Source: Gemmatimonadota bacterium
GTDB taxonomy: Bacteria > Gemmatimonadota > Gemmatimonadetes > Gemmatimonadales > GWC2-71-9
Assembly: GCA_039588295.1 (NCBI GenBank)
Contig: JBDHAB010000004.1
Span: 143,006-207,005 of the forward strand
DNA: 64,000 bases
Reading direction: 5' to 3'
The translations under genes and the position numbers were made by a program. The notes under the pieces are model-generated. The model ran no database searches. It was not told where the DNA came from and worked only from the letters and a program-made list of their open reading frames with translations. Below are positions 10,766-45,195 of the stretch, piece after piece (positions within the stretch are counted from its first letter, which is position 1; every line of letters starts with the position of its first letter).

Positions 10766-10789
10766 CACAGGCATGGAGGAGAAGAGGAG

Positions 10790-11104: not shown

Positions 11105-11126
11105 TTTGGAGGCAAGGAGTCACACC

Positions 11127-15975: not shown

Positions 15976-16084
15976 CGGTTTCTTTAGGATGGGCTCACGA
16001 ACTTTTTGGCTGCTCGGGGATACATTCCCTGTAGCCAAATGCGAGAGTGTTTCCCGTCTTTCGGGCGGAGGGTATATTTCCAAC

Positions 16085-16489: not shown

Positions 16490-16493
16490 CGGC

Positions 16494-21502: not shown

Positions 21503-21765
21503 CCTGTATGGGTTGGGGAGTACCCCCGGAGAGGTACCTTGCCGTGGGGACCAGCAGAGCGGCTCGGCTTCGGTCGGGCCGCTGTGGTTTGCGGGAGGAG
21601 GGAGACCGTCACGGCGTGGCTAGACATTGGATCGGCGCACCAATTGCGTAACCGCTTGACAGGCAATAGGCTAGAAGAGGCTCAGTGCCCATTCATGGCG
21701 CGTTGTTGTCGCCCCGCGGCCTTTGGGAAACGCCAGTCGCTTCATCGGAAAGAGGCAGCCTTGAG

Positions 21766-27564: not shown

Positions 27565-27738
27565 GGATTGCAGGCAAGTGCGTCCTGCCAGAGCCAGCCA
27601 CAGTCCTGGATGTCCCCGGTCTCGTTATCCAGATCTCCTCACGTGCCCGGACGGGAGTCAACTGGGAGATCTATGCGGGTTGTTGCAGTGAGTGCGCTGT
27701 TCACGGCCAGATCCGTGTTACACGTTCCTTCAGTCACT

Positions 27739-28656
27739 ATGCGCTATTGGCGTCTCATCGTCGCCGTAGCTGCCCTCACGATTCTGGTGATGTATGTGGG
27801 ACACGGAGAATTCGTTCGTGTGCTGTTGCGGACCCGGCCGACGTGGCTGCTGCTGTACCTGGTCGGCCTTGGAGCACTACCGCTCCTGTATGGCTGCCAG
27901 ATCTGGGTCTCCCTCCGTCTCCTCGGTCACGATTTGCCCGTTTCCAGCGCCCTGTCCGGCAGTGTCAACGCATGGGCCGTAGGACAGATCACACCCGCGC
28001 GTGCGGGTGATCTGAGTCTCGCGCACTTCCTTGGTGCGAAGGCACCAGCGCCTGTCGTCGTCAGCTTGGTCGTGGTGGATAAGGCCCTCAGCTTGGCGTT
28101 GCTGGCCTTCATCGCCGCTGTTGCCGGTGTCACACTTGAGTTCAGCCTGGCAACATCCGTGATAATCGCTTCAGCGATTCTGCTCGGAGTGCTGGGTATT
28201 GGGAGCGTGCTCTTCCTGGCGATCCTGAGGATACCACGCGCTTGGCGATTATTGCCCCAGTTCGCCCGTCGCTTCTCCGAGCAGGCGCGACAAGCGCTCC
28301 TGGCCGTCACTGCGAGGTGGTCGCTGATCGCGTGGAACCTCGTGGCCATCCTGCTCAAGTGGACTGTTGTGTTCACGTTGATTTGGGTACTGTTCCGATC
28401 TCTCGACTACTATCCTCACGTTAGGTTTGTCACAGCTGCCTCAGCGATTGGGCGGTTACTTGCCCTAGTCCCTGTCACCGTTGGCGGTATCGGGCTCAAG
28501 GAGCCGATTCAAATCGTGATCTATCAGCTTGATGGCATTCCCGACGAAGCGGTTGTGGCCGTAAGCACACTCGGTGCGTCCCTTGGTTTCTTGATGACAG
28601 CCTTTCTGCCGCTGCTCATAGCGAGAGGGTTCGGTTGGCGATCGGAGGTGTCGTGA
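27739..28656 (+). CDS. Lysylphosphatidylglycerol-synthase TM domain / flippase-like membrane protein
   Basis: Polytopic; TPARAGD, VVDK, PVTVGGIGLKE. Confidence 0.8.
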   Translation: MRYWRLIVAVAALTILVMYVGHGEFVRVLLRTRPTWLLLYLVGLGALPLLYGCQIWVSLRLLGHDLPVSSALSGSVNAWAVGQITPARAGDLSLAHFLGAKAPAPVVVSLVVVDKALSLALLAFIAAVAGVTLEFSLATSVIIASAILLGVLGIGSVLFLAILRIPRAWRLLPQFARRFSEQARQALLAVTARWSLIAWNLVAILLKWTVVFTLIWVLFRSLDYYPHVRFVTAASAIGRLLALVPVTVGGIGLKEPIQIVIYQLDGIPDEAVVAVSTLGASLGFLMTAFLPLLIARGFGWRSEVS

Positions 28657-29708
28657 AGCGCCTACTTGCGACGGCGTGGCGGTACTGGCGAGCACGCTAC
28701 CGACTGTCGTACCCACTCCAAGTTGGGTTTGCGGTGAACAACACGTGCAATACGTTCTGCCAAATGTGCAACGTTTGGCAGATGCGACCCAAGGAAGAGT
28801 TGGGTCTCGATCAGATCCGGGCGATCTTCTCCCGGCGTCTCTTTCAAAACTGCGTCACGGTCAGCTTGACGGGTGGTGAGCCAACAATGCGGCGTGATCT
28901 CGGTGAAATCCCCAAGATCCTCGCCGAGACGCTGCCGACTTTGAGGCAGGTTAATCTCACGAGCAACGGGTACACGCCGTCGGCGCTCAGCGCGCACCTT
29001 GAGTCTTGTCTCCCGGTACTTCAATCTCATCGTGTCGGAATGTCGGTGAATATCTCCATCGATGGTGTCGGCGAAGTGCATGACAGGGTACGTGGACGAG
29101 AGGGTGCCTTCGAGAATTTGAGTACCTCAGTGTCCGTCGTGCTAGGCTTGCAGCAGCGATATCGAGTCAACCTTGCTCTTGCGTGTACGATCACGCGGGG
29201 CAACCTGGCTGGGGTGAGGGACGTTCTTGAGTATGCGAAGCGACTCGGCGTGTACGTCATCTTCCGAAACGGCTTCACCATCCGCCGCATCGGGAGCGAA
29301 TCAACGTTCGGTGAGTTTGGCGTTACGCCGGCTCAGATACCGGACGTCATAGACTTCTATGCCAATGCGGCGCTTCGGTATGATCCGACCTACCAGCGTC
29401 GCGAGTACTATCGCATGTTGCTTAGGATGCTCAAGGGGGGGGAACGAGACGTCCCGTGTCTGTATCGCAAGGCTGGGCTGTTCATCGATCATCGAGGAGA
29501 GATGTTCGTCTGTACCGTATTCAGCGATCGAATTGGGTCGGCGATCGGTGAACACGCGGAGAGCCAATTCCTGGATTCGGCCGAACATCGCAGCGAGTTG
29601 GCGTGCAGGGACTGCCGCAAGTGCTCGCATGATGTCACTCTCTATACCTCACTCGTCCAGCAAGGTATGGAGAAGCTTAGAGCGCACGTGACGGGTGTGA
29701 AGCGGTGA
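28653..29708 (+). CDS. Radical SAM protein with SPASM/twitch-type C-terminal cysteines
   Basis: CNTFCQMC, LTGGEP, ISIDG...HDRVRG, C-terminal PC...VC...CRKC. Confidence 0.9.
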   Translation: MKRLLATAWRYWRARYRLSYPLQVGFAVNNTCNTFCQMCNVWQMRPKEELGLDQIRAIFSRRLFQNCVTVSLTGGEPTMRRDLGEIPKILAETLPTLRQVNLTSNGYTPSALSAHLESCLPVLQSHRVGMSVNISIDGVGEVHDRVRGREGAFENLSTSVSVVLGLQQRYRVNLALACTITRGNLAGVRDVLEYAKRLGVYVIFRNGFTIRRIGSESTFGEFGVTPAQIPDVIDFYANAALRYDPTYQRREYYRMLLRMLKGGERDVPCLYRKAGLFIDHRGEMFVCTVFSDRIGSAIGEHAESQFLDSAEHRSELACRDCRKCSHDVTLYTSLVQQGMEKLRAHVTGVKR

Positions 29709-30952
29709 GGTTACTGAGGCTGCTTGTGGAGATACTAGGATGTGTTGTACTGCTTCCAGCGGCATGGATAAGGCGCGCGATGGGCCGCAAGTCGGGTCAG
29801 CGAATTGCCATCGTTGGCTGGTATGGATCTGAAACGGTCGGGGACGTCGCGATACTTGGGCAGGTGTTGAGCGAGTGGCGGCACGTCCTGCCACGGGTCA
29901 CCATCACGATCGTCAGTTTCGCACCGAAGATCACGCAGCGCTCGCTCGATGATATCGATGAGCGGAAGGCACTTATTGCTGGAGAGGGTCTTGCCAGTTG
30001 CTGGGCTCTGGTCATGGCGGATTGGCTGGTATTCGGTGGCGGGCCTCTCATGCAGAGCCCAACGACGTTCCTGTGGCTGGCTCGGGTAATCGCGGTGAAG
30101 GTGGCGGGCGGTCAAGTTGTCGTGCACGGCTGTGGAGTAGGACCGATCCGGACTGCTGCAATGTGTCTGGCGGCATCAATGATCCTGCACCGGGCGGATC
30201 TGATAATGCTGCGTGACCGCACGATTGAGCAGTGGCTCCCGAGGTTTGCAGGTTCGTACCACGTCGTGTTTGACCCGGCATTCGACTATGTCAGAAGCAT
30301 GTGTGAGTCGGAGCCCCGCGCGGATTCGGGACAACGATCACAGCGGGTGCTCGCCTTGTTTCTGCGATGGCCGTCAAAGCAGTACTTGGAGAGGGGAACC
30401 CTGCCTGAGGATCTCGTCGACACGATCGTTCAGGCCCTCATTTCGCTTACAGACCAGATGAATCTTCTCCTGCGCGCGTGCGTGATGCACGCGGACTACC
30501 CGGAAAGCGATGACCGCCGCATTTATCAGCATCTTCGGCGCTCTCTACGTCGTGGTGTCACACTCGACCTGTCGTCGGAGCGACAAGCGCTGCGAGACAT
30601 CGTGCATGCCGCCCGAAGTAGTGATGCCGTACTTGCAATTCGGTATCATGGATTGGTGATCGCGCTCGCCACGGGCACGCCGTTTCTGGCGGTTGATTAT
30701 ACAGAACCGTGGGGCAAAACGAGGTCGACCGCCGAGCGCGTGGGCATGAGCGACCATGTCTTGTCGTGGACGCAGTCGACTGCCGCAACGATTGCGGATG
30801 AGTTGGCGAGCGTTTTGGCTCACGAGGCTCACCGGGAACAAGCGCGAGTGTTGGATGAGGATTTTGTGGGTCAACGCGTGGAGCTGCTGCAGATGCTTGT
30901 TGAGCGACGGAGAGACGGAGGTTACGAGGCGCGTGCCATGAGGTCTTCGTAG
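29705..30952 (+). CDS. Polysaccharide pyruvyl transferase family protein (CsaB-like)
   Basis: GWYGSETVGDVAIL, FGGG, GCGVGP, LRD, DPAF, RYHGLVIA. Confidence 0.82.
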   Translation: MRLLRLLVEILGCVVLLPAAWIRRAMGRKSGQRIAIVGWYGSETVGDVAILGQVLSEWRHVLPRVTITIVSFAPKITQRSLDDIDERKALIAGEGLASCWALVMADWLVFGGGPLMQSPTTFLWLARVIAVKVAGGQVVVHGCGVGPIRTAAMCLAASMILHRADLIMLRDRTIEQWLPRFAGSYHVVFDPAFDYVRSMCESEPRADSGQRSQRVLALFLRWPSKQYLERGTLPEDLVDTIVQALISLTDQMNLLLRACVMHADYPESDDRRIYQHLRRSLRRGVTLDLSSERQALRDIVHAARSSDAVLAIRYHGLVIALATGTPFLAVDYTEPWGKTRSTAERVGMSDHVLSWTQSTAATIADELASVLAHEAHREQARVLDEDFVGQRVELLQMLVERRRDGGYEARAMRSS

Positions 30953-32073
30953 AGTCGCTCGTACTCAGTAATCTGGCGCTCTAGCGTGAATTGCCGTGCC
31001 ACCGTGAGCCGTCCCTGTTCTCCCATGGCGTGTGCCAAGGCCGGCTCCCGCAGGATTGCGAGACATCGCCCGGCCATACCCGCAGGATCATCCAATTCGG
31101 TGAGATACCCATTCACCCCATCTCTGATCACCTCAGGGTGACCGCTGACTCTGGTGGCCACGCACGGAAGACCGTTGGCGAAGGCCTCGAGTATCACCAT
31201 CGGAAGACCCTCACATGCAGACGGTATCAGCAGAACAGACGAAGACCTGTACAGGGGTGTTATGTTGCGGGACCGCAGCTTGCCCACCCAATGCACAGCT
31301 CCCGCTTGCCCCAGCTCCTCGAAGAGTGCCACTACGTGCGGCACCTCGGACGGCTCCACTCCGACGATGTTGAGCGTAACGTCAGCGCGCTTCTGTCGGA
31401 TACGTTGGAGCACAGAGGGCAAAACAGTGATGCGTTTTCGGTGAGTCGAGTTTCCTACATAGAGGATGGCCGTGGTGCTGCGCAGGGGGGAGGGTTCCAG
31501 AGGCGCGGTGTCGGTGATCGATGGTACTGCGTTGTAAATTATGGTCGCGCTACGGCCCTTCGTCTCACCAAGCACATCGCAAGCCGAACTGCGGGAGATG
31601 AATGACTCTGCGTCAGCCATCTTCAGCATGGCCCAATCCGACACCCGATGTAGCGTTGTGGTTAAGAACCGGTATCGAAGGTTCGCTAGGCTACGCCCAT
31701 AGAGGCGTCCATCGATCCGGTAGGGCCGATGCGCCTCCGCAAAGGCACGAAAGCTCACGTGAAACGTCGCGAGAATCGGAGTTCTGATTCCCATACTCCA
31801 CATCCCGAGTGTAAACAGCAGCGCCTCACCATTGTGGCAGTGTACAACGTCAAATGCCCGCGCGCGTGATGCCAGCAGGGCAGTGCGGATGATCCATCCA
31901 GCCGCCGTCTTCGAGACGCGCTCAACCGTCGGATCATCTACGCTGGTCCCTGCCGCTATTACGCATGACTCATGTCCTCGCTCTAGTAGTCCACTGTGTA
32001 GATGCGCGACCACCTCGCCTACGCCGCCTATCCGATCTGGAGGTAGGTAGGGCACAACATGGAGGATTCGCAT
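30922..32073 (-). CDS. GT4 glycosyltransferase
   Basis: MRILHV, IGGVG, EGLPMVILEAFANGLPCVAT. Confidence 0.9.
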   Translation of the reverse strand: MRILHVVPYLPPDRIGGVGEVVAHLHSGLLERGHESCVIAAGTSVDDPTVERVSKTAAGWIIRTALLASRARAFDVVHCHNGEALLFTLGMWSMGIRTPILATFHVSFRAFAEAHRPYRIDGRLYGRSLANLRYRFLTTTLHRVSDWAMLKMADAESFISRSSACDVLGETKGRSATIIYNAVPSITDTAPLEPSPLRSTTAILYVGNSTHRKRITVLPSVLQRIRQKRADVTLNIVGVEPSEVPHVVALFEELGQAGAVHWVGKLRSRNITPLYRSSSVLLIPSACEGLPMVILEAFANGLPCVATRVSGHPEVIRDGVNGYLTELDDPAGMAGRCLAILREPALAHAMGEQGRLTVARQFTLERQITEYERLYEDLMARAS

Positions 32074-32082
32074 TGCCCGAAC

Positions 32083-32811
32083 CTAACTCGGCATTATTGA
32101 GGGCTTGCTGGCCACCAGCACGTGGTCGCATGGGTAAAGCGTCGCCATGCCGACCAACCGATCCAGGAGGCCGAGGAGACGCACGAGAATCAGATAGTTA
32201 GCCAGCCACACCGGCCAGCGCAGCAGCGGCAGGCTCCCGAGCGTGCTCATGATGAGCGCACTCGCGCCATGGCCGAGGAAGCACAAGAGCCCGCCCGTCG
32301 GCGTGATCTCAAGCACCTCCAGGTCGGCCCGCCGGCACAGCGCTTCAAGCCCGTAGCGGGTGTACCGGTAGTAGTCATGCGGTGCCTCGTGGACCACCGA
32401 GAGGTGCGGCACACTCAGGATGGTGACGCCGCCCGGTTTCAACACCCGCGCAATTTCGCCCATCGCGTCCCACGGCCTCGGCACGTGCTCGACTACCTGG
32501 CTGCACAGGACGGTGTCGATCGACTCGTCGCCGATCTCCGACATGCGCTGAAGGTCCGCGATGACGTCGACGTCGCCCGAGCGATTCTCCACGTCGACCG
32601 AGAGGACTTCCAACCCCACGGTGGTCAGGAGTCGCTTGTACGGGGATCGGCCAGAGCCCGCATCCAGGCAGCGACCGTGCGCGTGTGCCGAAATCTGCCG
32701 GCGCACCGCGGCGTTAAGCCGCGCGCGGGCGAGGGAGAGGGTGTGCAGGAGCCCCCGAGAGGCGAGGGCCTCCTCGATGCGCTGCCTGCCGCGCTGCAGG
32801 AAGCGGGTCAC
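32083..32811 (-). CDS. Class I SAM-dependent methyltransferase
   Basis: CLDAGSGRSPY, DTVLCSQVVEHV, RVLKPGG, HEAPHDYYRYT; GTG start inferred. Confidence 0.85.
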   Translation of the reverse strand: MTRFLQRGRQRIEEALASRGLLHTLSLARARLNAAVRRQISAHAHGRCLDAGSGRSPYKRLLTTVGLEVLSVDVENRSGDVDVIADLQRMSEIGDESIDTVLCSQVVEHVPRPWDAMGEIARVLKPGGVTILSVPHLSVVHEAPHDYYRYTRYGLEALCRRADLEVLEITPTGGLLCFLGHGASALIMSTLGSLPLLRWPVWLANYLILVRLLGLLDRLVGMATLYPCDHVLVASKPSIMPS

Positions 32812-32857
32812 GGTGGACGGAGACTGCTGCGCAGGGGTGCGTGCGGATGCCGGGTCC

Positions 32858-33633
32858 TCATCTCGCCGCGGGCTGCAGCGAGCCACCGCCGTGCGATGCA
32901 TGACACTCCGTGCACTTCCCCCCAGGGCCATGTGCCGGGGCCGCTGCCGCCGCGGCAGCCCGTGACAGACGGCGGCGACCTGCGCTCGCGCCGACCGTCG
33001 ACAGCCCGCTGGCCGAGTGGCACGACTGGCACTGCAGGTCGGGCGTGCTCTCGCGCAAGAGCCGCGTGCCCGGCTGACCGTGGTGCAGGTCGTGACAGTC
33101 CGAGCACGCGAGGGAAACGTGCTCGTGGGTCGCATACTCCGACGAGCTGTGGCACCCGGCGCAGATCATGCGCTGTTCGCTCGCGTCGGGGATCGGCGAC
33201 AGCCGGTCGTGCGGGTCGTGACAGTCGGTACACTCGATCACCGCGGACTGCGACGCCAGTTGCAGCGGCGAGCGCAGGTACCGGCGCGACGCCCGCCGCC
33301 GCCCGGTGGGCTGCGGTATGCTCACCTCCACATCGCCGAGCGGGTGAACCCCTACGCCGGTCGGCCCGAGGTACCGCGCGCCGTCGGATTGGCGGACGGC
33401 CGTGAGTGCGGGGAGGCCGGGTTGCTGCTGACGGAGGCTCTCGTTGAGGTGAGGGAGCCTTCGCCGAGTCGCAGCGTCGCCCTGGTCGGCCGTCCCACGT
33501 GGGCGGCGTGGCAGTAGTCGCACGAACTGAGTTCTCCCACACCCTCGGTCTCCGCCACCTGAGGATGCTGACCCTGGGCGGAGGTGGGAACGAGGGCCAC
33601 CACCGGCAGCCACGCGAGCCTGGCTATCCGCAA
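32858..33633 (-). pseudogene. Multiheme cytochrome c split across two frames (at least 6 CxxCH)
   Basis: Signal plus CDYCH in ORF 33352-33633; CTDCH, CAGCH, CSDCH, CQSCH, CTECH in ORF 32858-33613. Frame switch near 33430. Confidence 0.75.
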
Positions 33634-33634
33634 G

Positions 33635-35539
33635 CTAGAACCGCCTCCGGACCCAGATTGTGACCCGGTTATCCGCCCGGCCGACTACGTCGTTCCAGGT
33701 ACGCGCCTGGAAATCCGCGGCGACGGTGACGAGTGCCACGGTCAGCGTGGCACCGATGCCGCCACCGATGTTCCGGCGGGTGTCGTCGGTAGCCAGCCGG
33801 GTGACGCTCCACGCCCCGAGGTGGGCGCGTGTGCGGAGCCAGCGCAGCCCCTCCCAGTTGGCACCACCCGAAATGTTGAGGGTGCGGGCCAGATTGCCGG
33901 GATCGCCCGACCAGCTCATGCCCCCACCCAGCCCGACCCGGACCTGCTGAGGCAGGCGGACGTTGATGCCACCGCTCACCGACGTGGCGCTGAAGGCGTA
34001 GTCGCCACTGGTTCTGCGGATCCGCGTCACGGCCACTCTCCCGGACCCCAGCGGAACGGAACCCGCGATGCGCAACCCGAACTCCAGCTCGCTGAGGTCC
34101 CGGAGGAAGAGGCCGCCCGTGCTGCCGGATGGGAGTTCCGACAGCGGCTCCGCCCGGCGCAGCCGCACGAACGTTTCCGCGGGGCCAACCGACGCCCGGG
34201 CGTTGGCCGAGAGGGTGAGATGATCGAGTGGCCCACTCGCAGGTGAGGCGTACGCGTAGTCGACCTGGACGGTATCGCCGGGGGCGATCCGGCTCGCCGG
34301 AGCGAGGGTCACCAGCGTAAACGCACCGCTTGGAAGCAACTCGTAATCCAGTCCCGCTTCGTAGAGGATGGCCCGGTCCCCGCTGAAGATGCGAACCGAG
34401 GCAGCCTCCACCCTGGGATTCTCGAGCAGGAAGCTCCCGTCCGCGCCGACGACGCGCTCTTCCCCCACCACGTCGGCCAGCCCCTCGTCCGTGGCCTCCG
34501 CCTGTCCGCGGAGGTATTGGACCGATCCGCCGCCGCCCAGTCGGACGGAGCCGAACAGACGGTAGCCGAAGCCCACCGACTGCCCAACCGACAGCTCCCG
34601 TTGCCGCTCGATCCGGCCCCGCACCCACCGCGAGGAGACGTTGCTGCGACCCACGAGCCCGGGACCGACAGGGTACGACATGCCGTATCCCGCACTCCAA
34701 ACCGATCGCCCTGCTGCGTCGGATCGGGTGTTGCGATATTGGAACGAAAGGCTCGACTGCACTCTTTGGGCATGCCGGATGCGGCCGATCTCGGACCACT
34801 GCAGGCTCCGCCGACCTAGGCCGTCCACGAAGCTCAACCTGGAGCTCCAGGAGCTGCCCCGGCCCCAGCCGTGTCGATGTCCCAGGCTGGCCACCCACTG
34901 CGCGTCCTTGCGGTTGCTCGCCTGTGTCCACCAGAAGCGCTGCACGAGCAATTGCGTCTTGCGATTGCGCGCCTCCAGCGCGAGTGAGCGGTTCGTGAAG
35001 GTCAGGGGCGAACCGGTGGTAAACCCCTCCGTCTCCGCCTTGTGGCGGTACAACAGCTTCGTCGGCAGACCGGGCAACTGCGCGTCGAAACGGGCTCCAT
35101 AGTATGAAACCCATCGCTCCGTTTCAAAGCCGGTCCGATCCTGCCGGACGGTGGTGCTCCGACCGCCATTCAGCGTCAGCCAGTATGGCCGGCTGTTCTG
35201 GAGAACGTTCGCATGCGCCGACCATCCGAAGTCGCGCAGGGAGGAGGACTCGGTGCTCGTGCCCCCGATCTGCGTCCACTGCGGTTGCAGGGTGACGCCG
35301 AACCGGAACGCGCCGGGATGGAGGATGACGCCGTCCACTTCGAGCGACGCGAACTCCGTCGTCTGGAGGTTGTAGGCTCCGGCGGGGAAGGTCTGGTCGC
35401 TTTTCCAGTTTCGGAGCAGTCGTGCACCGATGCTCCCCCTCACGTCCGTGAGGGAGAACCACGTCTGAGCGGAAACGGGTTCCGCCGTGCTCCCCAGAGT
35501 TCCCAGGAGGAAGAACCATGCGAGCAGGCCGTGTCTCAT
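33635..35539 (-). CDS. Large outer-membrane beta-barrel protein of a multiheme cytochrome cluster
   Basis: Signal peptide, many amphipathic beta-strands, internal beta-rich insertion (YEAGLDY...VQVDY), C-terminal VRRRF; overlaps the upstream cytochrome stop. Confidence 0.7.
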   Translation of the reverse strand: MRHGLLAWFFLLGTLGSTAEPVSAQTWFSLTDVRGSIGARLLRNWKSDQTFPAGAYNLQTTEFASLEVDGVILHPGAFRFGVTLQPQWTQIGGTSTESSSLRDFGWSAHANVLQNSRPYWLTLNGGRSTTVRQDRTGFETERWVSYYGARFDAQLPGLPTKLLYRHKAETEGFTTGSPLTFTNRSLALEARNRKTQLLVQRFWWTQASNRKDAQWVASLGHRHGWGRGSSWSSRLSFVDGLGRRSLQWSEIGRIRHAQRVQSSLSFQYRNTRSDAAGRSVWSAGYGMSYPVGPGLVGRSNVSSRWVRGRIERQRELSVGQSVGFGYRLFGSVRLGGGGSVQYLRGQAEATDEGLADVVGEERVVGADGSFLLENPRVEAASVRIFSGDRAILYEAGLDYELLPSGAFTLVTLAPASRIAPGDTVQVDYAYASPASGPLDHLTLSANARASVGPAETFVRLRRAEPLSELPSGSTGGLFLRDLSELEFGLRIAGSVPLGSGRVAVTRIRRTSGDYAFSATSVSGGINVRLPQQVRVGLGGGMSWSGDPGNLARTLNISGGANWEGLRWLRTRAHLGAWSVTRLATDDTRRNIGGGIGATLTVALVTVAADFQARTWNDVVGRADNRVTIWVRRRF

Positions 35540-36426
35540 TGAGCGTTCGCCGGTGCCTCGGTGGGGGCGGTGTGGCACCTGGTGCAATCCACGAGGTCGA
35601 AGGCGACCTCGCCATCATGACAGGCACCGCAGGCGGCGCCGTCTCGCATGGCCGCCATGGTGAGCGTGTCCGAGCCGGCGCGCATGGCAAAGAGGGATGG
35701 GTGACATGCGGTACACCGGTACCGGATGCGGTGGCGCCAATGGGGGAAGCGGGCATGGGGGAACGCCGCCTCCACGTTCTCGTCGACGCCGTGGCGCGCA
35801 AGCACGACGTCTTTGCCCAGCGGGTTGGTGATGGGCTCGAACGCAGGCATGCCCTCGTGGCACCGCACGCAGGTCGACGTTGCGAATGACACCGGGCCGT
35901 GGCACTGCCCGCACGCCTCCCCGTTGTTGATCAACGCCATGGTGACGGGCTCACCCCGGTAGCGCACGATGGCCGGATGGCAGCCATCGCACCCAACCCA
36001 CTGGACGTGGGAGGAATGGGGGAACCGTGCATCGAACATCGGATCCGGGCCTTTGTAGAGGAAATCGAATCCGAACGCGTGCTGATCGGCGCCATCCGGC
36101 TCACCGGCGACCGACCAGCGCGGGTCGATCACGCCGCGACGGAGGGCCTCCATCCAATCAACCCCGTCCGCCACGTCGCGCGGCAGCAGGGCGAGAACGC
36201 TGTCCCGCGCCGTCACCCGTTCGATGGCGGGCCGGTCGGCAACCGTGTCACTTGGGATGCTGCGGGAGACAATGCCCGGCGCTGTCTGGGAGGTCTCGGG
36301 CTCCTGGGGCAGGTCGAGCAGAACGGCCGCCGCCGTCGAGCAGCCCGCCAGGAGTGCTGCCGCCACCACGGTGCATGCAGCCCGTCCTCCAAATCGAGAC
36401 CCGGATGTGGATGCAACTCGTGTCAT
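35536..36426 (-). CDS. Hexaheme lipoprotein cytochrome c with two c7-type triheme domains
   Basis: Lipobox LAGC; FPHxxH motifs; CDGCH, CGQCH, CVRCH, CTACH, CGACH, CTRCH. Confidence 0.9.
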   Translation of the reverse strand: MTRVASTSGSRFGGRAACTVVAAALLAGCSTAAAVLLDLPQEPETSQTAPGIVSRSIPSDTVADRPAIERVTARDSVLALLPRDVADGVDWMEALRRGVIDPRWSVAGEPDGADQHAFGFDFLYKGPDPMFDARFPHSSHVQWVGCDGCHPAIVRYRGEPVTMALINNGEACGQCHGPVSFATSTCVRCHEGMPAFEPITNPLGKDVVLARHGVDENVEAAFPHARFPHWRHRIRYRCTACHPSLFAMRAGSDTLTMAAMRDGAACGACHDGEVAFDLVDCTRCHTAPTEAPANAQ

Positions 36427-36517: not shown

Positions 36518-36534
36518 TGGCAAGATCATTGCCT
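36518..36534. promoter_or_regulatory. Candidate sigma-54 (-24/-12) promoter readable on both strands
   Basis: TGGCAAGATCATTGCCT on + and AGGCAATGATCTTGCCA on -, both GG-N10-GC, between divergent cytochrome operons. Confidence 0.5.
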
Positions 36535-36804
36535 CTTCCGTATAAAGCAATCGTGAACAGCGACTTAAGGCCCGGCGGAGGCCCCGATGAATGTGTTCTG
36601 GCACCGTGGCGTAGGTGCCACGGACGTTGCAGAATTGGGACGGAACCTATGTTAATACAGGCTTCATTAAATCTTTACGGCTGAGGGCGTACAGTCCCAC
36701 AGCCTCTAGGCAGAAAGAGTACGTAGGCGTTGGCAAAGGCCCGTATTGGGGCCCCAAGAGCGGCCTTTGCGAAGTGGTTAGGTCCATGGACTGGAGGAGG
36801 AGGT

Positions 36805-37458
36805 ATGAAGAGAACGCTTGTTTCAACGATGGTGGCGCTCGCAATGCCTGTTTTCGCGGCGTCGGCTTCGCCCCTGTGGAATGCGACCCTGTCGACGACG
36901 CCGTGGACGAGCTTGGCGGCCAGCCCGCACGACTTCACGGCGTCCAATCCGGATCCGACCTACGCCGCGATTGCCGCGACGAACAAGTGTGAGTCGTGTC
37001 ACCACCCTCACGAAGCGATTGGCGCCGCCTACGGTCCGCTGTGGAACCACAGCCTCAATTCAGGCGCCAACGCGTATACGATGTACGGTACCACCATCGC
37101 TGGCAACGACCCCACCAACAATGCGGTCGGCAACGCATCGCTCCGGTGCTTGGGCTGCCATGACGGCACGCTTCCGATCGATGCCTACGGCGGCAGCGCG
37201 GGCACCCCGACGCTCACGGTCGGCCTGGAGAAGTTCAGCAACCTGGCCGACGTGACAACCGATCTGACGGACGATCACCCGGTGGGGTACAACATTCCTC
37301 TTGGTACGGCGGGCTGGCAGGCCAATCTCACCGGTGCTTCTGCCACGGCCTACAGCGGCGACGTGGAGTGTGCCAGCTGCCACGATCCGCACGGCACGAC
37401 GTACGGCGTGAAGTTTCTGCGGGCTGCGGACTTCTGCACGGACTGCCACGACAAGTAG
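36805..37458 (+). CDS. Secreted tetraheme cytochrome c, OmcE-like (nanowire-forming family)
   Basis: Strong RBS GGAGGAGGAGG; SPHDF, CESCHHPH, PLWNH, YTMY, SLRCLGCHDG, DLTDDHPVG, VECASCHDPH, FLR, CTDCHDK. This motif order matches what I recall for Geobacter OmcE. Confidence 0.8.
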   Translation: MKRTLVSTMVALAMPVFAASASPLWNATLSTTPWTSLAASPHDFTASNPDPTYAAIAATNKCESCHHPHEAIGAAYGPLWNHSLNSGANAYTMYGTTIAGNDPTNNAVGNASLRCLGCHDGTLPIDAYGGSAGTPTLTVGLEKFSNLADVTTDLTDDHPVGYNIPLGTAGWQANLTGASATAYSGDVECASCHDPHGTTYGVKFLRAADFCTDCHDK

Positions 37459-37513
37459 GCAGGTCTGCCCTGGCACCGAAGCCGGGGAATGAGTACAATC
37501 GAGATGCGACGAT

Positions 37514-37542
37514 GGGGGTGGCCGAGGTTGGCCACCTTCTTC
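37514..37542 (+). terminator. Hairpin/terminator after the OmcE-like gene
   Basis: GGTGGCC / GGCCACC stem followed by TTCTTC. Confidence 0.5.
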
Positions 37543-37597
37543 GTATGGAGAATTGGCGAAGGCAGGGGATCGTCAGATGCTCGGGAGAAGCTATAGC

Positions 37598-38656
37598 ATG
37601 ATTCGGTTCGGTGGTCCGGTTCTGGCGATGGTGGTGGCTACGGCGTGTGCCAGCGGCGGCACCATGGAATACATCTTCTATCCGCCCCCGCCAGACACGG
37701 CCCGCTTCCAATTCCTCAGGGGCATCTCCTCGCTCGATGACGTCAAAGGCTCCGGGCGGTCCTTATTCGCGGCCATTGTGGGTGAAGAGAGGAAGGCGAG
37801 CCCGATCCGCATCATCCGGCCGTACGGGGTCTCTGTCGACAGTGGCCTGATTTACGTCTGCGACGTCAATCTGCCCGGCGTCTCGATCATCGATCTGGCC
37901 GAGAAGTCGATGCGGCAGGTCATGAGCCCGACCCTGCCGCGACCCAGTGCCTGTGTGGTGGATCGGGCGACCGGTCAGCTCTACATCGCCGATTCCGAGC
38001 GACAGGAGATAGTGATCATAGGGACGGACGGCATCTACGCCGGCGTCGTGGGAGACAGCCTGCGCGGGCCCGGCGGTGTCTACGTGACCGATGACCGGGT
38101 GTGGGTTACCGATATCGGAACGAAGCAGGTTCGCGTGTACGACAAGGCAACGCGCCAGCATCTGCGCGCATTCCCGGATCGGGGCCTCGAAAGAGACGAT
38201 CCGGCTCGGCTCCAGTGGCCCATGAGCCTGTCTGTGCATGGAGACCGCGTGTACGTCACCGACCAGTTCGCTGCGCACGTGAACGTCTATTCGACGGACG
38301 GGGCGTACGTCAGAACGATCGGGCGACGCGGGGTGAGTTTCGGGGCCTTCGACCTGCCCAAGGGTGTCGTCGTGGATCCCGCAGGCCGGGTCTATGTGGC
38401 GGACTTTCAGTTTCACCACGTCCAGGTGTTCGACGAGGAAGGGAGCGTGCTCACCTACTTCGGGGGTGGGGGTCGGGGGCGACCCGGATACCTGGGCGGG
38501 CCCATCGGCCTTGCCATCGACGACGTCAACCTTGAGTACTTTCGGGAGTACGTGCACCCGGACTTCGACCTGAAGTTTCTTATTTACGTGACGAATCAGG
38601 TCGGTGCCCAGAAGCTCTCGGTCTACGGGTTCGTCGAGCCGAAAGCGGGACGCTAG
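37598..38656 (+). CDS. NHL-repeat beta-propeller lipoprotein
   Basis: Lipobox TAC; FYPPPPDTARFQFL; repeats RPYGVSVD, WPMSL, LPKGVVVD, GPIGLAID. Confidence 0.88.
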   Translation: MIRFGGPVLAMVVATACASGGTMEYIFYPPPPDTARFQFLRGISSLDDVKGSGRSLFAAIVGEERKASPIRIIRPYGVSVDSGLIYVCDVNLPGVSIIDLAEKSMRQVMSPTLPRPSACVVDRATGQLYIADSERQEIVIIGTDGIYAGVVGDSLRGPGGVYVTDDRVWVTDIGTKQVRVYDKATRQHLRAFPDRGLERDDPARLQWPMSLSVHGDRVYVTDQFAAHVNVYSTDGAYVRTIGRRGVSFGAFDLPKGVVVDPAGRVYVADFQFHHVQVFDEEGSVLTYFGGGGRGRPGYLGGPIGLAIDDVNLEYFREYVHPDFDLKFLIYVTNQVGAQKLSVYGFVEPKAGR

Positions 38657-38899: not shown

Positions 38900-40432
38900 T
38901 CATTGATTCGGCCGGTTCGCACTCATGGCTTCGAGGGCTGCCGCGGCCGTTCTATTCTGCCGATCGAGGCGGAGGACACGACGGTACCATCCTTCGGCCT
39001 CCCCCGTGTTCCCGCGGCCGGCAGCGCGACTTGCGAGCCGCAGGTACTGCATCACGTACACCTGGGTGTTCAGCACGCCCGCGCGTCTGTGCTCGTCGGC
39101 CTTTGCGGGTTGTCCGAGGCGCTCGTACTCCCGAATCAGCGCCACGCGCAGGGCGTTGGACCGTGGGCTCACCCGCACGGCCGTCTCGAATACCGTGACG
39201 TTATCGCGCCACACCGCGTTCCGGCGCGCCGTGAGCACCGACAAGGTGGTGAGCAGGACGACCGTCACGACCAGCGAGATGGGGACGCTTCGGAGTGCGC
39301 GACCGTGGACGCCTGCGGAGGCAACTGCCCGGACTGCCGCATACGCAAGGCCCAGCATCGGGACGTAGAGAAACCGTTCGCCGATCATTGCTCCCCTGAG
39401 TGGAACGATGTTCATGACGGGGAGGAGGGTAATAAAGAACCAGGCAATTCCAAATGCCACATGCGTGTTCCGGCGCATGTTGTATGCGGCGATGAACACC
39501 ACAATCGCGATGACGCCAAGCGCACCGAGAGCGCCGGGGTCGAGATAGGATTCCGGAATGCCGACCTCATGGCGAACGGATTGGCGCACGGGAATCAGGA
39601 GAAGTCGGAGGTACTTTGCCACGACTGCCGCCTGCATCAGCATCGTTCTCGTGAAGGTGACACCCATCCACTCACCGCTCGCCAGCCCGCCGAGGAGGTG
39701 ACTGCGCCACCAGACGAACGCCGCCGCAATGGCGACGAACCCGAGGAGATACGCAGAGTATCCTCGGTGCAGTGTGAATCCGTTCCTTCGGCGCCGGAGC
39801 AGCAAGTCGGACAGCACCACGAGCAGTGGCAGCGTGATGGCCATCTCCTTGGCCAGCAGTGCGAGGCCGAAGCACACATACACGGCCGCCACGGCACCTG
39901 GGTGCCATGAGCCGCGCCTTCGTAGCCCTAAGTGCAGGTAGAGGGACAGCAAGACCAGGGACGCGGAGAGAAGGTCTGCGAATCCGGTCACATTGGCTAC
40001 TGCCTCTGTCATGATCGGATGGGACGCAAAGACCGCTGCCACGATCATCCCCGCCCCGCGCGTGCCGGACAACAGGGTGAACACGGCGTAGGTCAGGAGG
40101 ACGTTCACCACATGCACGAGACCATTGAGCGCGTGATACGCCAAAGGACTCAGTCCGAAGGCGTGATGTACGATCGCAAACACCAGCGTCCGGAGCGGCC
40201 GATAGTATGCCATGCCCTCGGCAGCCACACCCGTGCGGTAGTCGGTGAAGAACTGCGGCAGGTTCCCGAGATCGCGGACGGCAGGATTGTCGACGAGAAC
40301 GGGAAAGTCGTCCCAGACGAAGCCGTTCAGCAGCGTATTCGCGTAGATCAGGACGGTTCCGAGCACGAGCGCGACGGGGACTACCGGAGGGTCCTTCCGC
40401 GTCGCCGGGCCGCTGTTACCTGCCATCGTCAT
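38900..40432 (-). CDS. TMTC-like GT-C glycosyltransferase with short TPR tail (paralog 3)
   Basis: NGFVWDD, YYRPL, HPIMTEAV, AKEMA, ERFLYVP, RNAVW. Confidence 0.85.
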   Translation of the reverse strand: MTMAGNSGPATRKDPPVVPVALVLGTVLIYANTLLNGFVWDDFPVLVDNPAVRDLGNLPQFFTDYRTGVAAEGMAYYRPLRTLVFAIVHHAFGLSPLAYHALNGLVHVVNVLLTYAVFTLLSGTRGAGMIVAAVFASHPIMTEAVANVTGFADLLSASLVLLSLYLHLGLRRRGSWHPGAVAAVYVCFGLALLAKEMAITLPLLVVLSDLLLRRRRNGFTLHRGYSAYLLGFVAIAAAFVWWRSHLLGGLASGEWMGVTFTRTMLMQAAVVAKYLRLLLIPVRQSVRHEVGIPESYLDPGALGALGVIAIVVFIAAYNMRRNTHVAFGIAWFFITLLPVMNIVPLRGAMIGERFLYVPMLGLAYAAVRAVASAGVHGRALRSVPISLVVTVVLLTTLSVLTARRNAVWRDNVTVFETAVRVSPRSNALRVALIREYERLGQPAKADEHRRAGVLNTQVYVMQYLRLASRAAGRGNTGEAEGWYRRVLRLDRQNRTAAAALEAMSANRPNQ

Positions 40433-40519
40433 CGGTGTTCACTGCCCACGGCTGGTCCGTGCCTGTGTGCTCCGTGAACGACCGGTGTTGTCACTTGCAG
40501 CGCCTCGAGAACCGGCATA

Positions 40520-42340
40520 CTACTGCGAGAGCTTGGCGCGGAGGAGCGCGATCTGCGCAGCGAACCGCTGCGGAGCAGTCTCCATGAACCGGCGGTAGAG
40601 AACCCGAGCCTCCTCTTCACGTCCCGCCTGTTCGTACGCTCTGCCGAGATTGTAGAGCGCCTCCGGAAACAGCGGGTCGATCTCGAGCGCCCGCTGCCAC
40701 AAGACAGTCGCCTCAGTGCGGTTCCCTCGTCGGTCTAGAAGATTGGCCAGGTTATTGAGGGCGGTCGGGTGGCGCGGACTCAATTCCACGGCACGTCGAT
40801 AATGGTATTCCGCTCGATCGAAGTCCCCCAGGCGTGCGTACGCGACGCCGAGGCTCAGGTGCGCCCCCTGGGACGATGGGGCCAACTCCACCGCCCGGGA
40901 CAGATGACGCCGGGCCTCTTTGGGGGCGCCGAGTGCGAGAGCGACGTCGCCCAGGTTCAGCCACGCGCGACTGTATTCCGGGAAGACCGTGGCGGCATAC
41001 CGAGCATGTCGGCGGGCTCCCTCATAATCCCCGACATCGAAGTACGCCGTGGAGAGCGAGGCTTGCACGAACGCGCTCCCCGGCTGCACGGTCGCAGCGC
41101 TGGTGAACAAGGCCATCGCATCGTGCCAGTCGCTCGTTCGCAACCAGGTTCGCCCCGCATAGAGAACGATGACAGCCGCGACTGCCACACGTCCCAACGC
41201 CCTTCCGCGCGCTCCGGACAGCCGGACCAGGGCATCCAATCCCACGATTGCCGCGATCGCGAGGCCCGCCGTAGGGAAGTACAGGAACCGCTCGGCAAAC
41301 AATGATGCGACCGGCCGCACCGCGTTCACACCAAGGAGCGCGACGTGTGACAGCACCATACTCAATCCAACGAACGCCACGCGCGAGCGCCGGGCCAGCC
41401 ACGAGAGCGTCCACAAGGAGACGAGCAGGACGGCGCTCCCGAGAATGACGCGCGCGTCAAGGAAACTCCGAGCGATTGGGATGGCCTCGTAGGAGTAGTC
41501 TGCCGAGAGCGGTACCGGGTAGATCCACAGCTGGGCAGCCTGCGCCAGAAGCGCCATTGCAGTGATGAACCGAGGACCGAGGGGCTCCGCAATCAGGGGG
41601 TTGAACACGTACTCGATGGGTGACTGGCGCAGCCCCCCGAATCCGGCCGCAAGCCCGGCCACATAGACAACAGCAGTCAGCAGATACACACCGAATCGGC
41701 CCCACTGCGGCTTCGGCTTCCTGGTGGCCTCGAACAGCAGCAGCACACCAAGCAGCGCAACGGCGCCTTCCTTACAGAGCAATGCGAGCCCGAACAGGAT
41801 GACACCGGTCACGTGTGCCCATGATGCTCGAATCGCCCCGCTGCCGGGCGAGCGGACGTAGAGCACGAGAGCGGCAAGAGAAAACAGCGCTGCCAGGAGC
41901 TCGCTTCGCGCCGCGCCCCAGGCCACGGCTTCGCTGGTCACCGGATGGACTGCGAAGACGGCGGCACCACAGGCGGCAAGTGTCGCCCGGCCTGTGAGTG
42001 CGGTGACGAGCAGCATTACCAGGACGGCGTTTGCCCAATGGAGCAGGATGTTGCCTAGGTGATACCCGAACGGGCTGAGGCCGCCCAGCGCGTAGTTGAC
42101 GGCGTAGGACAGCGTAATGAGCGGTCGATAGTGCGTTCGGGAGGATGCCGACGTGGACTCCCAGAACCCGGATGTGAACATCTCAGGGAGGTTGGCCAGG
42201 TTCCGGATGACCGGGTTCTGCTGGATAAACGGGATGTCGTCGACCACAAAGCCGTTGGAGAGTGCGTTCACGTATGCGACGAAGATCAAGGCCCCCAGCA
42301 GGAGCGCGAATGCTGCAAGCCGTCTTGTCTCCCCCGACAT
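40520..42340 (-). CDS. TMTC-like GT-C glycosyltransferase with C-terminal TPRs (paralog 4)
   Basis: NGFVVDD, HYRPL, VHPVTSEAV, CKEGA, LSADYS, AERFLYFP, multiple TPRs; start uncertain. Confidence 0.87.
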   Translation of the reverse strand: MSGETRRLAAFALLLGALIFVAYVNALSNGFVVDDIPFIQQNPVIRNLANLPEMFTSGFWESTSASSRTHYRPLITLSYAVNYALGGLSPFGYHLGNILLHWANAVLVMLLVTALTGRATLAACGAAVFAVHPVTSEAVAWGAARSELLAALFSLAALVLYVRSPGSGAIRASWAHVTGVILFGLALLCKEGAVALLGVLLLFEATRKPKPQWGRFGVYLLTAVVYVAGLAAGFGGLRQSPIEYVFNPLIAEPLGPRFITAMALLAQAAQLWIYPVPLSADYSYEAIPIARSFLDARVILGSAVLLVSLWTLSWLARRSRVAFVGLSMVLSHVALLGVNAVRPVASLFAERFLYFPTAGLAIAAIVGLDALVRLSGARGRALGRVAVAAVIVLYAGRTWLRTSDWHDAMALFTSAATVQPGSAFVQASLSTAYFDVGDYEGARRHARYAATVFPEYSRAWLNLGDVALALGAPKEARRHLSRAVELAPSSQGAHLSLGVAYARLGDFDRAEYHYRRAVELSPRHPTALNNLANLLDRRGNRTEATVLWQRALEIDPLFPEALYNLGRAYEQAGREEEARVLYRRFMETAPQRFAAQIALLRAKLSQ

Positions 42341-42519
42341 CGGGCCCGAAGGGATCTTCGTAGGACATTCCTTGAGTCTTTCCATGCTCCGGACTCCCGT
42401 CAGATCACCCGAGCGGCTTGTCGACAAAGAACGTCTCGGTCACACCGATCCCGCCAACCACCGCGGCGCGCGCGAGAAGATACGACAGGTAGAGGTATCC
42501 GAGTCGCCGGTTTCCGAGC

Positions 42520-42794
42520 AGGGGATCTTCACAATCCTCACGAAGTTCAACACCAATTCCTGGGTCACCACGGGCCTTACGGACGATCACCCGGTCGGGT
42601 ACGATCTGCCGAACGACGTTAATGAGTACAGCCAAACGCCCTCGACGGCTAAGTTGTACGGTGGCGCCATAGAGTGCGCAAGCTGTCACGACCCACACGG
42701 CACTACCTACGGCGTGAAGTTCCTGCGGGCTCAGGATTTCTGCTCGGACTGCCACAACAAGCAGGTCAAGTTGTGCGCCCGCGCGGCGGGTTGA
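42520..42794 (+). pseudogene. 5'-truncated copy of the OmcE-like cytochrome (last two hemes)
   Basis: KF...VTTGLTDDHPVGY...IECASCHDPHGTTYGVKFLRAQDFCSDCHNK matches the 36805-37458 C-terminus; no signal peptide or first two hemes; stop codon lost. Confidence 0.8.
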
Positions 42795-42804
42795 GATCGC
42801 GGAG

Positions 42805-42841
42805 CCGGGGGTGGCCAAAGATTGCCACCCCCGGTTTTATT
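42805..42841 (+). terminator. Intrinsic terminator
   Basis: 11-bp stem CCGGGGGTGGC / GCCACCCCCGG followed by TTTTATT. Confidence 0.75.
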
Positions 42842-42870
42842 GTGGTCGAGACCTCGTACGGAGTTGTGGA

Positions 42871-43494
42871 GTGTCGATTCGAATTCGCCTTCACTTGTTG
42901 GCTCTGACCTGCTCGGTGTGTGCTCTTGGAGCGTGTGCGAGCAGTGGTTCGATTGAGTATGTCTTCTTCCCGCCTCCGCCGGACACGGTGCGGCTTCAGT
43001 ATTTGGGTAAGATCAGTCCACTTGACGATCGCAAGGAGGTGGGGCGTTCCGTATTTGCCATGCTTGGGGGTGGGGAGGAGGAACAGAGCCCAATCCGCCT
43101 CCTTCGCCAGTACGGCGTGACGACCGATACCGGAACCATCCACGCCTGCGACGTGAACCTGCCTGGCGTCCAGGCGATCGATCTGGGGGAGCGAGATATC
43201 CGCCAGATCAAGAGCCCCACCATGATGCAGCCGAGCATTCGCACCGTGGATCCCGTCACCGACGAGCTCTACGTGGTAGAGGACAATCGGGACGAGATCG
43301 TCGTGCTTGGGGTGGATGGTATGTTCAAGAGTGTCGTGCCGATGGACGTGTGGATCGACTACGCCAATCTGGATCTTTATCGGGATTGGGTGCACCCGGA
43401 TTTCACGCTGAAGCACCCAGTGCTGGTTGCGAACCAACTCAGCCCTGATAAGTTGGCCATTTGCGGGTTCGTGGAACCAAGACAGGGCCGGTAA
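42871..43494 (+). pseudogene. Internally deleted paralog of the NHL lipoprotein at 37598
   Basis: ACASSGSIEYVFFPPPPDT, CDVNLPGV and VHPDFTLK...GFVEP match; about 150 central residues are missing in frame. Confidence 0.75.
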
Positions 43495-45195
43495 TTGGCG
43501 TTACAGGCGCTACGGAAGTCGCTCCTGACATCGGAGCTAGGGCCACTCGCTCTTCTCATTGCGGTCAACCCGGTGGTCTACTCGATCAACCGGAGCGCGG
43601 CGTACTTTCCGCCGGATTCCATCCTCTACGCCGTTATGGCCAGGGACTTCCTAGACGGTCTCCCGCTGCATGTATCGGGTTGGGGTGGGGCCGGCGGTGG
43701 AGTCATCTTGCCACCACTCTACCCAGCCGTGGTCGCACTAATGTCGATCGCGAGCCCGAATCGGTTGGCAGTGGCGGAGTATGTGAGCGCCATCAGCATC
43801 ATCCTGGCTGCCATTCCCCTGTATCTCACGGCTCGCTCATACGCCGGGAGAATTCCCAGCCTCATCGGAGTCGGTGCCCTCCAGTGCATGGGGTTCTACT
43901 TCCACACGGCTCTTCAACCGCTCACAGAGGGCCTGTTCATACTGGTCTCAGCGATTGCTGCCTACGTGTTGGTCAGGACGGCGAGGAGAGGGACGAAGTT
44001 GAGGTGGGTCCTGATATCCGGTGTCTGCGCCGCGCTCGTCTACTTCACCCGCCAGATAGGCCTGCTGTTTCTCCCATGCGCGGTTCTGTTCTTCCTCCTT
44101 CCGGGAACAGAGTCCTTTCGAAGTCGAGTGAAGCGACGAGTCACAGCGGCAGTGGTGGTGGTGGGTGGTTTTCTGGTTCTTGCTGGACCGTATGCGCTGA
44201 CGCTTTACTTGCAGACTGGTCAACTCCCCCTCAAGCAGCGTTTCAGTACTCGATCGCAGGCGGTGCAACCGAGCGCTGAAGACCTCCGCACAATTGAGCG
44301 TATCCGCGCGGAGACAAGCGCCGGCTACGAAGGCACGTACGGTGAGCGCCGAAGGCTCCGAAAGCTGAACGAGGCCCGATCGGCTATGCTCTCTTCGGTT
44401 GTTGCAGGTGACGGCAACCAAAGGAGCCTCGTTTCGTCGGTTTTCAAGACGCTCATGTCCCCGCGAAGTGTGATTCAACGGATCGGCTCCAACCTGCGGC
44501 ATGTGGTGACCGCCGCCGGTCCGGGGCTTTCCCTCCTGTTTTGCATGGCCATGCTCTTTCCACTCACGCGTACGACGGATGAGCGCCGACGGTGGGTCTG
44601 GAGTGTGCCGTGGTTGTGGGTGGTTGGATATGTCTTTGGGCTTTCTCTGGTATCGACCACAGTTGACCGCTACGTCCTTGTAATCATCCCATTCCTGTTC
44701 CTGCAGTCGGTGCTTTTCCTCACAACTGTCGGGGGTTGGCTGCCTGCGGTGCGTACCCGTCATGGGCGGCTGCCCATTGACGGAGGGCTCGCCACGATCG
44801 TGTTCGTGATCGGGTTAGCGTCGGCGCCGTCTTTGTTTGCAGACGTTTCCCGCTATCCGAAGCTGTTGGAGTCGGAGTTGCCAATGGGTGCGCTGCGTAA
44901 CGTTGTTGGCAGGGGTGACCCCATGTTCACCCTCTACCCGGCAGATGCCTACTTCTTGGGTGGAATCTTCCGCGTCCAGCCGGACGCACGCACGGGAGAC
45001 TTGGCTGCGTTTGCTCGTCGCACGGGTGTCAAGTGGCTGGTCGTTCGCCGCACCCCGCAGATCATGCAGGAGTTGCAGTACTACTCCGAATCCTCGTGGT
45101 ACCTCGATCCAGGCGTGGTCAGTGACACCAACTTGGTCTTCATGGGCTCGAGCGAGGATGACGTGTTACACCTTTATCGCGTTCGCGATCAGTAG
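43495..45195 (+). CDS. GT-C fold (ArnT/PMT-like) membrane glycosyltransferase
   Basis: PDSILY, PPLYP, LTEGLF, TRQIG, RYVLVIIP; polytopic membrane protein. Confidence 0.7.
   Translation: MALQALRKSLLTSELGPLALLIAVNPVVYSINRSAAYFPPDSILYAVMARDFLDGLPLHVSGWGGAGGGVILPPLYPAVVALMSIASPNRLAVAEYVSAISIILAAIPLYLTARSYAGRIPSLIGVGALQCMGFYFHTALQPLTEGLFILVSAIAAYVLVRTARRGTKLRWVLISGVCAALVYFTRQIGLLFLPCAVLFFLLPGTESFRSRVKRRVTAAVVVVGGFLVLAGPYALTLYLQTGQLPLKQRFSTRSQAVQPSAEDLRTIERIRAETSAGYEGTYGERRRLRKLNEARSAMLSSVVAGDGNQRSLVSSVFKTLMSPRSVIQRIGSNLRHVVTAAGPGLSLLFCMAMLFPLTRTTDERRRWVWSVPWLWVVGYVFGLSLVSTTVDRYVLVIIPFLFLQSVLFLTTVGGWLPAVRTRHGRLPIDGGLATIVFVIGLASAPSLFADVSRYPKLLESELPMGALRNVVGRGDPMFTLYPADAYFLGGIFRVQPDARTGDLAAFARRTGVKWLVVRRTPQIMQELQYYSESSWYLDPGVVSDTNLVFMGSSEDDVLHLYRVRDQ

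Follow-up and report, generated by a model that had tools for sequence, protein, structure and literature searches.

OmcE of Geobacter sulfurreducens forms filaments in which one haem of each subunit is ligated by a His residue of the neighbouring subunit (PMC9473688, PMC12954529), and inter-subunit His ligation is common to OmcS and OmcE (PMC9473688). Filament structures have been solved for two members of the OmcE family (PMC13712944). As described by Petersen et al. 2026 (PMC13712944), the minimal omcE cluster encodes two multihaem cytochromes, two beta-propeller lipoproteins, OmcE and a large barrel, and genes for GT2/4/39 glycosyltransferases, methyltransferases and TPR proteins often follow. 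Surface glycosylation is present in Geobacter-type OmcE and absent in D. soudanensis. According to that paper, the start, capping and secretion of OmcE wires are an open question; an anchor would need one His beyond those of OmcE, and no anchor or tip candidate was found within the operons. Its main text names five phyla for omcE clusters and never mentions Gemmatimonadota. One study disputes the role of cytochrome filaments as physiological conduits even in Geobacter (PMC11077965). In addition, the uet cluster, which comprises a tetrahaem cytochrome, a 28-strand barrel, c7 cytochromes and two NHL proteins, has been proposed to serve electron uptake (bioRxiv 10.1101/2022.05.06.490989).

The window analyzed here is a stretch of 64,000 nucleotides from a Gemmatimonadota bacterium whose genome assembly (4.5 Mb, 64% GC) is 96% complete. 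The genome contains 25 ORFs with at least three CxxCH motifs, 13 of them on the contig bearing the cluster. Near-identical pieces were found in a marine-sediment run, with 16 of 23 contigs at a level of at least 99%, so that this run may represent the source sample; for a second run (X2) the share was small (0.10), and no habitat is deduced from it. The features of the cluster are listed in Table 1.

Table 1. Features of the omcE-like cluster (window coordinates).
Feature	Position	Strand	Details
Cytochrome c maturation genes ccmE, ccmF, ccmH	15755..19140	+	
Second NHL beta-propeller lipoprotein (NHL-B)	19902..20858	+	orthologs flank the module in relatives
Short multihaem protein	20855..21502	+	three CxxCH, one CX3CH and one CX4CH
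Glycosylation block	21685..32830		GT2, two GT4, two TMTC-like/TPR, flippase-like, radical SAM, pyruvyl-transferase, methyltransferase
Heptahaem-type gene (OmcE-like core plus three haems; candidate cap or anchor)	32858..33633	-	broken
Outer-membrane beta-barrel, about 28 long strands and an inserted small beta domain	33635..35539	-	model pLDDT 87.9
Hexahaem lipoprotein with two c7-type domains	35536..36426	-	TIGR04257, 118 bits (cut-off 40)
Sigma-54-like -24/-12 match	36518..36533	+	10/12, 287 nt upstream, within an inverted repeat; weak
Shine-Dalgarno tract GGAGGAGGAGG	36793..36803	+	
omcE-like gene	36805..37458	+	217 aa; predicted Sec signal peptide 1-21; four CxxCH; four distal His
N-terminal arm, residues 22-38 (about 17)	36868..36918	+	second PLWN, conserved Trp and Leu; outside the part aligned with 7TFS
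Small first hairpin past the omcE stop	37468..37487	+	
G-rich/C-rich stem-loop between omcE and the NHL gene	37509..37544 (core 37514-37539)	+	conserved, with compensatory changes
NHL beta-propeller, predicted lipoprotein (NHL-A)	37598..38656	+	Pfam NHL, E 3.3e-19
Two TMTC-like (protein O-mannosyltransferase-type) TPR genes	38900..42427	-	
Decayed second omcE-NHL copy	42405..43494	+	omcE C-terminal half, hairpin 42806-42835, truncated NHL
PMT_2 (GT39-like) glycosyltransferase	43495..45195	+	Pfam

The protein encoded by the omcE-like gene, whose signal peptide was predicted by eye from the sequence, contains the motifs SPHD (with H42), CESCHHPH, PLWN, CLGCHDG, DDHP (with H158), VECASCHDPH, FLR and CTDCHDK, that is, the full order from SPHD to the last CxxCHxK given by the original prediction. 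Its four CxxCH motifs and four distal His residues supply eight His for four haems. The only significant sequence match in the PDB was OmcE of G. sulfurreducens (7TFS, E 1.4e-11), the runner-up having an E value of 0.82. All four CxxCH motifs align with those of 7TFS, and the distal residues H42, H69, H158 and H196 each stand opposite a His of 7TFS in the sequence alignment; in the alignment of homologs these four positions are invariant or at least 90% conserved. An AlphaFold2 model of the monomer without haems (pLDDT 67) was built from a 100-row alignment, taking those 100 of 119 homologs that have four haems and a length of up to 300 aa. Foldseek analysis of this model found 7TFS as the lone match below 1e-3 (E 4.9e-5, probability 1.0, TM 0.48). 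In a comparison with 48,161 chains using VIA-align, 7TFS was the sole chain above Z 5 (Z 9.0, rmsd 3.7 Å, 166 aligned residues, model residues 20-195), and the second, OmcS, reached only Z 2.5. The structural match to OmcE required by the original prediction is thus present for the monomer model, with about 24-28% identity in the structural alignments. The predicted fold appears to be that of OmcE, although the model is of middling quality and the TM value is low. The data do not point to the OmcS/OmcZ type, since the protein has four haems instead of six or eight, no PDB sequence match of that kind and the above low Z value for OmcS. No Pfam or NCBIfam model naming OmcE itself was found in the profile searches. 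Sequence, predicted fold and gene cluster together support well the assignment of the gene product to the OmcE family of tetrahaem c-type cytochromes.

Every gene of the published omcE set has a counterpart in the window. The c7, barrel and heptahaem-type genes diverge from omcE, whereas NHL-B and the short multihaem gene follow ccmEFH and are set apart by the glycosylation block. Each of the genes omcE, NHL-A, NHL-B, c7, barrel and ccm has an uninterrupted frame of full length; among the multihaem partners, the c7 hexahaem and the short multihaem protein are intact and the heptahaem is broken. For NHL-A, the likely start is at 37598 and a lipobox-type Cys17 can be read from the sequence; a lipobox Cys was likewise read from that of NHL-B. 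The barrel has no Pfam family, and its best structural matches are LptD, TonB-dependent receptors and MtrB. In most relatives, the slot of the short multihaem protein is filled by a protein with 13-14 haems; the protein found here matches a 199-aa protein in the relative locus L128 and the N-terminal part of the 13-haem protein in L116. The original prediction is thus upheld in part: its OmcE-like tetrahaem cytochrome agrees with the 7TFS match, the predicted fold and the omcE-type gene set around it, and its NHL partner with the Pfam match of NHL-A, but four features had escaped it, namely, the barrel/cytochrome operon running divergently from omcE, the PLWN arm specific to the clade, the break in the heptahaem gene and the decayed second copy.

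Several other redox genes were noted in the same contig. A 30-kb multihaem island (G000:C4:115400-144900) lies upstream of the cluster, its end corresponding to window positions 438-1872. Its ORFs encode 8-, 9-, 9-, 9-, 21-, 11-, 19-, 12- and 4-haem proteins, accompanied by NrfC/D-like, Rieske, two cytochrome b, HmcB/C-like and two GcvH-like genes and a sigma-54 two-component pair. A 474-aa gene without an assigned family, located just before the 12-haem gene of the island, may encode a second porin. Positions 9362-12342 of the window contain a gene for a pyridine nucleotide-disulphide oxidoreductase and then small genes, which we take to resemble those of sulfur-relay (DsrC/TusE- and DsrE-like) proteins. 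No match to NiFe hydrogenase was found in the genome, which is 96% complete.

The heptahaem-type gene deserves separate consideration. Compared with L001, about 28 codons are gone, including those of the haem-2 cysteines, and there is a frameshift near 33455. An intact heptahaem gene with seven CxxCH motifs occurs in 13 of 20 relative stretches, and the other seven contain no such gene. In 12 relatives, the encoded protein aligns with the four-haem OmcE core and adds three haems and four more conserved His. The core distal His following haem 1 and those on either side of haem 3 are conserved at 90-100% and the N-terminal His in 10 of 12 sequences, which gives eight distal His for seven haems. 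From these sequence features, the heptahaem protein is likely a cap or anchor subunit. Contigs of a public run (X1) stop at 33443 and resume at 33459; since none of them spans the break, it may be an assembly error. The break present in the assembly implies that the wire may be uncapped or that the system is decaying here. In the decayed second omcE-NHL copy, the NHL gene has lost about 150 internal residues (159-308), and the hairpin at 42806-42835 has a T-tail.

An unusual part of the omcE-like protein is its N-terminal arm. A PLWN motif is located one or two residues past the predicted cleavage site and is followed by Trp, Leu and SPHD, the usual PLWN after haem 1 also being kept. Such an arm is present in 8 of 241 homologs, those nearest to the omcE-like protein; two further rows of the homolog set have a PWN of another kind, which comes after their first His. 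Seven PLWN-arm rows formed a single branch (SH-aLRT 99) adjoining other Gemmatimonadota sequences in a quick tree of 104 rows, which was built without bootstrap and with 7TFS left out, and from which no donor or transfer is deduced. The PLWN, W and L of the arm are invariant in six sequences with 48-77% identity, and in the AlphaFold2 model its first nine residues have pLDDT below 50. In the literature covered, no description of an N-terminal extension on OmcE was found, and one paper on archaeal cannulae surfaced. As a guess, the arm may serve for docking, either to the propeller or to an adjacent subunit.

The original prediction had also pointed to a Ser/Thr-rich mature N-terminus, and the enrichment is real: these residues make up 30% of the 40 positions preceding haem 1, whereas the median of 100 tetrahaem homologs is 20% and only 6 of them are equally rich, and the segment is a conserved extension. 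Residues T31, S40, T45, S47, T52 and T59 are kept in all six clade sequences and would be the best O-glycosylation candidates, whereas none of the four N-x-S/T sequons of the omcE-like protein is kept across the six. Four of the six TMTC-like genes of the genome are located in the cluster; these four and the PMT_2 gene span positions 23639-45195. A TMTC-like gene was found in just 3 of 20 relative stretches. Glycosylation of the omcE-like protein is plausible, mainly in view of this gene neighbourhood. The GC content of the blocks 27568-32073 and 42405-45195 is 59-60%, compared with 63-69% elsewhere in the cluster, which suggests their later insertion.

The expression signals around the gene were compared with those of the genome as a whole. 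The anti-SD pairing energy of the omcE ribosome-binding site is reached by 181 of 3523 genes (approximately the top 5%), whereas that of the two possible NHL starts is reached by 1267 and 1450 genes, in agreement with the strong site proposed originally. This ranking relies on crude gene calls and on the standard anti-SD sequence, which was used because no 16S gene was found in the assembly. A long inverted repeat (36599-36623) lies between c7 and omcE, in the divergent promoter region, and may be a regulator site or a hairpin. Control by sigma-54 was considered for the match listed in Table 1 and left as weak, since only 4 of the 16 relatives have a same-strand match scoring at least 9, and 92 of 1000 random windows have one too.

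A predicted hairpin downstream of omcE occupies 37514-37539 and can be lengthened to 37509-37544. The best 40-nt window gives z -4.0, a value that none of 30 shuffles reached, and the full 146-nt region only z -1.67; an equally stable downstream hairpin occurs in 39 of 400 random genes of the genome. In a survey of 120 nt past the stop codon at 24 loci, 15 had NHL-A after a spacer (the window, the decayed copy and 13 relatives), and 14 of these 15 spacers contain a G-rich/C-rich stem with z -2.9 or lower. Among the other nine loci, two from the same genus (L110 and L113) have no spacer between omcE and the NHL gene, six gave z values from -1.1 to 0, and one has a strong hairpin before a c7 gene. 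In the spacer-hairpin alignment, the pieces of which had been cut around the stems, 7 of 11 pairs show double-sided change. The two loci without a spacer indicate that a hairpin between omcE and the NHL gene is not required. A classical intrinsic terminator was rejected for 37514-37539, the hairpin having no U-run and being absent from the terminator-scan listing. Judging from its sequence, the stem-loop at 37509-37544 is likely a stabiliser of the transcript 3' end or a partial terminator. From the top-5% ribosome-binding site and the conserved covarying hairpin we may fairly infer that OmcE would be made in excess over the NHL protein.

With E values of up to 1e-3 and clustering at 50% identity, the OmcE-like family comprises 2879 clusters, and all four distal His are present in 232 of 236 tetrahaem homologs checked. 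Within the phylum, a homolog was found in 24 of 401 genomes searched (about 6%), including all four of the same genus. The nearest five named loci belong to Gemmatimonadota MAGs, with 38-69% identity to the omcE-like protein, and flanking ABC, transglutaminase and TPR genes are common to four of them, which agrees with the placement of the genome in this phylum. The region was compared in 20 of the 23 other homolog-bearing genomes, which are kin and not independent samples; omcE, NHL, c7 and barrel genes occur together in 19 of these 20 stretches, the twentieth stopping at a contig end. A second Gemmatimonadota layout was observed at L115, L118, L122 and L123, where NHL, a pentahaem OmcE paralog, OmcE, c7 and barrel form one operon; no hairpin follows omcE in the three of these loci that were scored. 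Two complete divergent omcE modules adjoin in one genome at L125:172-15391. OmcE-like tetrahaem proteins of Bacteroidota were found at L010, L014, L017 and L046; two are from named isolates (Lutimonas vermicola and Gaetbulibacter aquiaggeris), which are possible cultured test strains.

We consider it probable that the omcE-like protein is secreted, loaded with haem and polymerised in the manner of OmcE, and that the resulting surface filament, with its core of haems, moves respiratory electrons between the cell and solids or other cells. According to this scheme, the signal peptide (residues 1-21) would be cut after Sec export, and the Ccm system would attach the four haems. Polymerisation is proposed by analogy with OmcE: one haem per subunit would be ligated by a His of the next subunit, in keeping with eight His for four haems, and the chain would grow head to tail through or on the barrel. 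Secretion and anchoring likely fall to the two NHL lipoproteins and the large barrel, and the c7 hexahaem together with the upstream quinol-linked multihaem complexes likely feeds electrons in. The strong ribosome-binding site and the hairpin likely raise the output of the subunit above that of the NHL gene, TMTC/GT39-like enzymes likely O-glycosylate surface Ser/Thr residues, and the heptahaem protein would cap or anchor the chain.

Other explanations were weighed against this scheme. The tetrahaem protein might be a short, non-filament part of a Uet-type porin-cytochrome conduit, with one or few copies in or on the barrel and electrons possibly passing inward from reduced minerals to oxidases. 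The likeness to the uet gene list, a barrel of about 28 strands and two genes for haem-copper oxidase subunit I in the genome are compatible with such a conduit, but the direct match is to a filament subunit, and the ribosome-binding site and hairpin point to uneven stoichiometry. Moreover, PPIase, cupredoxin and undecahaem proteins are absent among the 36 window ORFs scanned, and the only RuBisCO signal in the genome is a weak family match (E 1e-22) in a 391-aa frame, so that autotrophy is not clearly indicated; polymerisation of the cytochromes is allowed for in the Uet paper, too (bioRxiv 10.1101/2022.05.06.490989). A conduit of this type is therefore regarded as unlikely. That the filament is mainly a glycosylated adhesin or biofilm scaffold and electron store, long-range conduction being secondary, is highly improbable: the heavy load of glycosylation genes, the proposal that OmcE bundles link cells (PMC13712944) and one Geobacter study in which Fe(III) oxides were still reduced after deletion of the filaments (PMC11077965) would fit it, but the haem ligands are all conserved, the c7 and barrel genes are co-conserved, and OmcE bundles conduct (PMC13712944).

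The cluster could also be decaying in this genome, so that an intact omcE sequence yields no working wire because its heptahaem partner is broken. The shortened and frameshifted heptahaem gene, whole in most relative stretches, the NHL-B neighbour, short where most relatives have 13-14 haems, and the ruined second omcE-NHL copy all speak for decay. Set against them are the open, full-length frames of the remaining core genes, a similarly short NHL-B neighbour in L128, the seven relative stretches that have no such heptahaem gene, and the chance that the unspanned break was introduced by assembly; we judge decay decidedly unlikely. More far-reaching is the proposal of a distinct OmcE subfamily, in which the duplicated PLWN arm at the mature N-terminus would extend into an adjoining subunit or filament, and wires would polymerise or bundle by a new, arm-swapped mode in a phylum without a described nanowire, with the heptahaem as an in-operon cap and the present strain as a natural cap-less mutant. 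We treat it as unlikely and retain the OmcE-like filament with its partner genes as the preferred explanation.

The OmcE nanowire gene set is thereby likely extended to Gemmatimonadota, an abundant phylum of soil and sediment. No cytochrome nanowire was found for Gemmatimonadota in the literature covered, which is thin in subscription papers, and the supplementary homolog lists of PMC13712944 may include the phylum; a paper that turned up for OmcE together with Gemmatimonadota is not a study of nanowires. The compact module offers testable parts, namely, the arm that marks the clade at the N-terminus and a heptahaem protein that has a single His to spare.

Among the known systems, the OmcS nanowire (6EF8) is only a weak structural echo: OmcS is a hexahaem protein with 407 residues in the solved chain and shows no sequence match. 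The uet cluster (Ca. Tenderia electrophaga / Tenderiales, bioRxiv 10.1101/2022.05.06.490989), compared by its gene list, shares the tetrahaem protein, the 28-strand barrel, the c7-type cytochromes and the two NHL proteins, whereas here the c7 domains are fused in one lipoprotein. No UetB PPIase or UetF cupredoxin was detected among the 36 window ORFs scanned with Pfam, and no 11-haem ORF corresponding to UetJ lies between 15755 and 45195. The closest similarity is with OmcE of Geobacter sulfurreducens (7TFS) and Desulfuromonas soudanensis (DSOUD_2954), in having four CxxCH motifs, four distal His at matching places and the same predicted fold, with the N-terminal PLWN arm as an addition. Like the omcE cluster of Petersen et al. 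2026 (PMC13712944), the locus encodes two propeller lipoproteins, a large barrel and multihaem partners, with GT2/GT4/GT39-like, methyltransferase and TPR genes alongside. It differs from that cluster in a divergent two-operon layout, in ccmEFH alongside in place of the purHDE/resB/ccsB-ffh synteny, in encoding an OmcE-core heptahaem where the paper reports no in-operon anchor or tip candidate, and in a Gemmatimonadota host outside the five phyla of the paper. The protein family and the cluster are already described, and the locus adds a further member to this known system, in which the N-terminal arm is unusual and one of the partner genes is broken.
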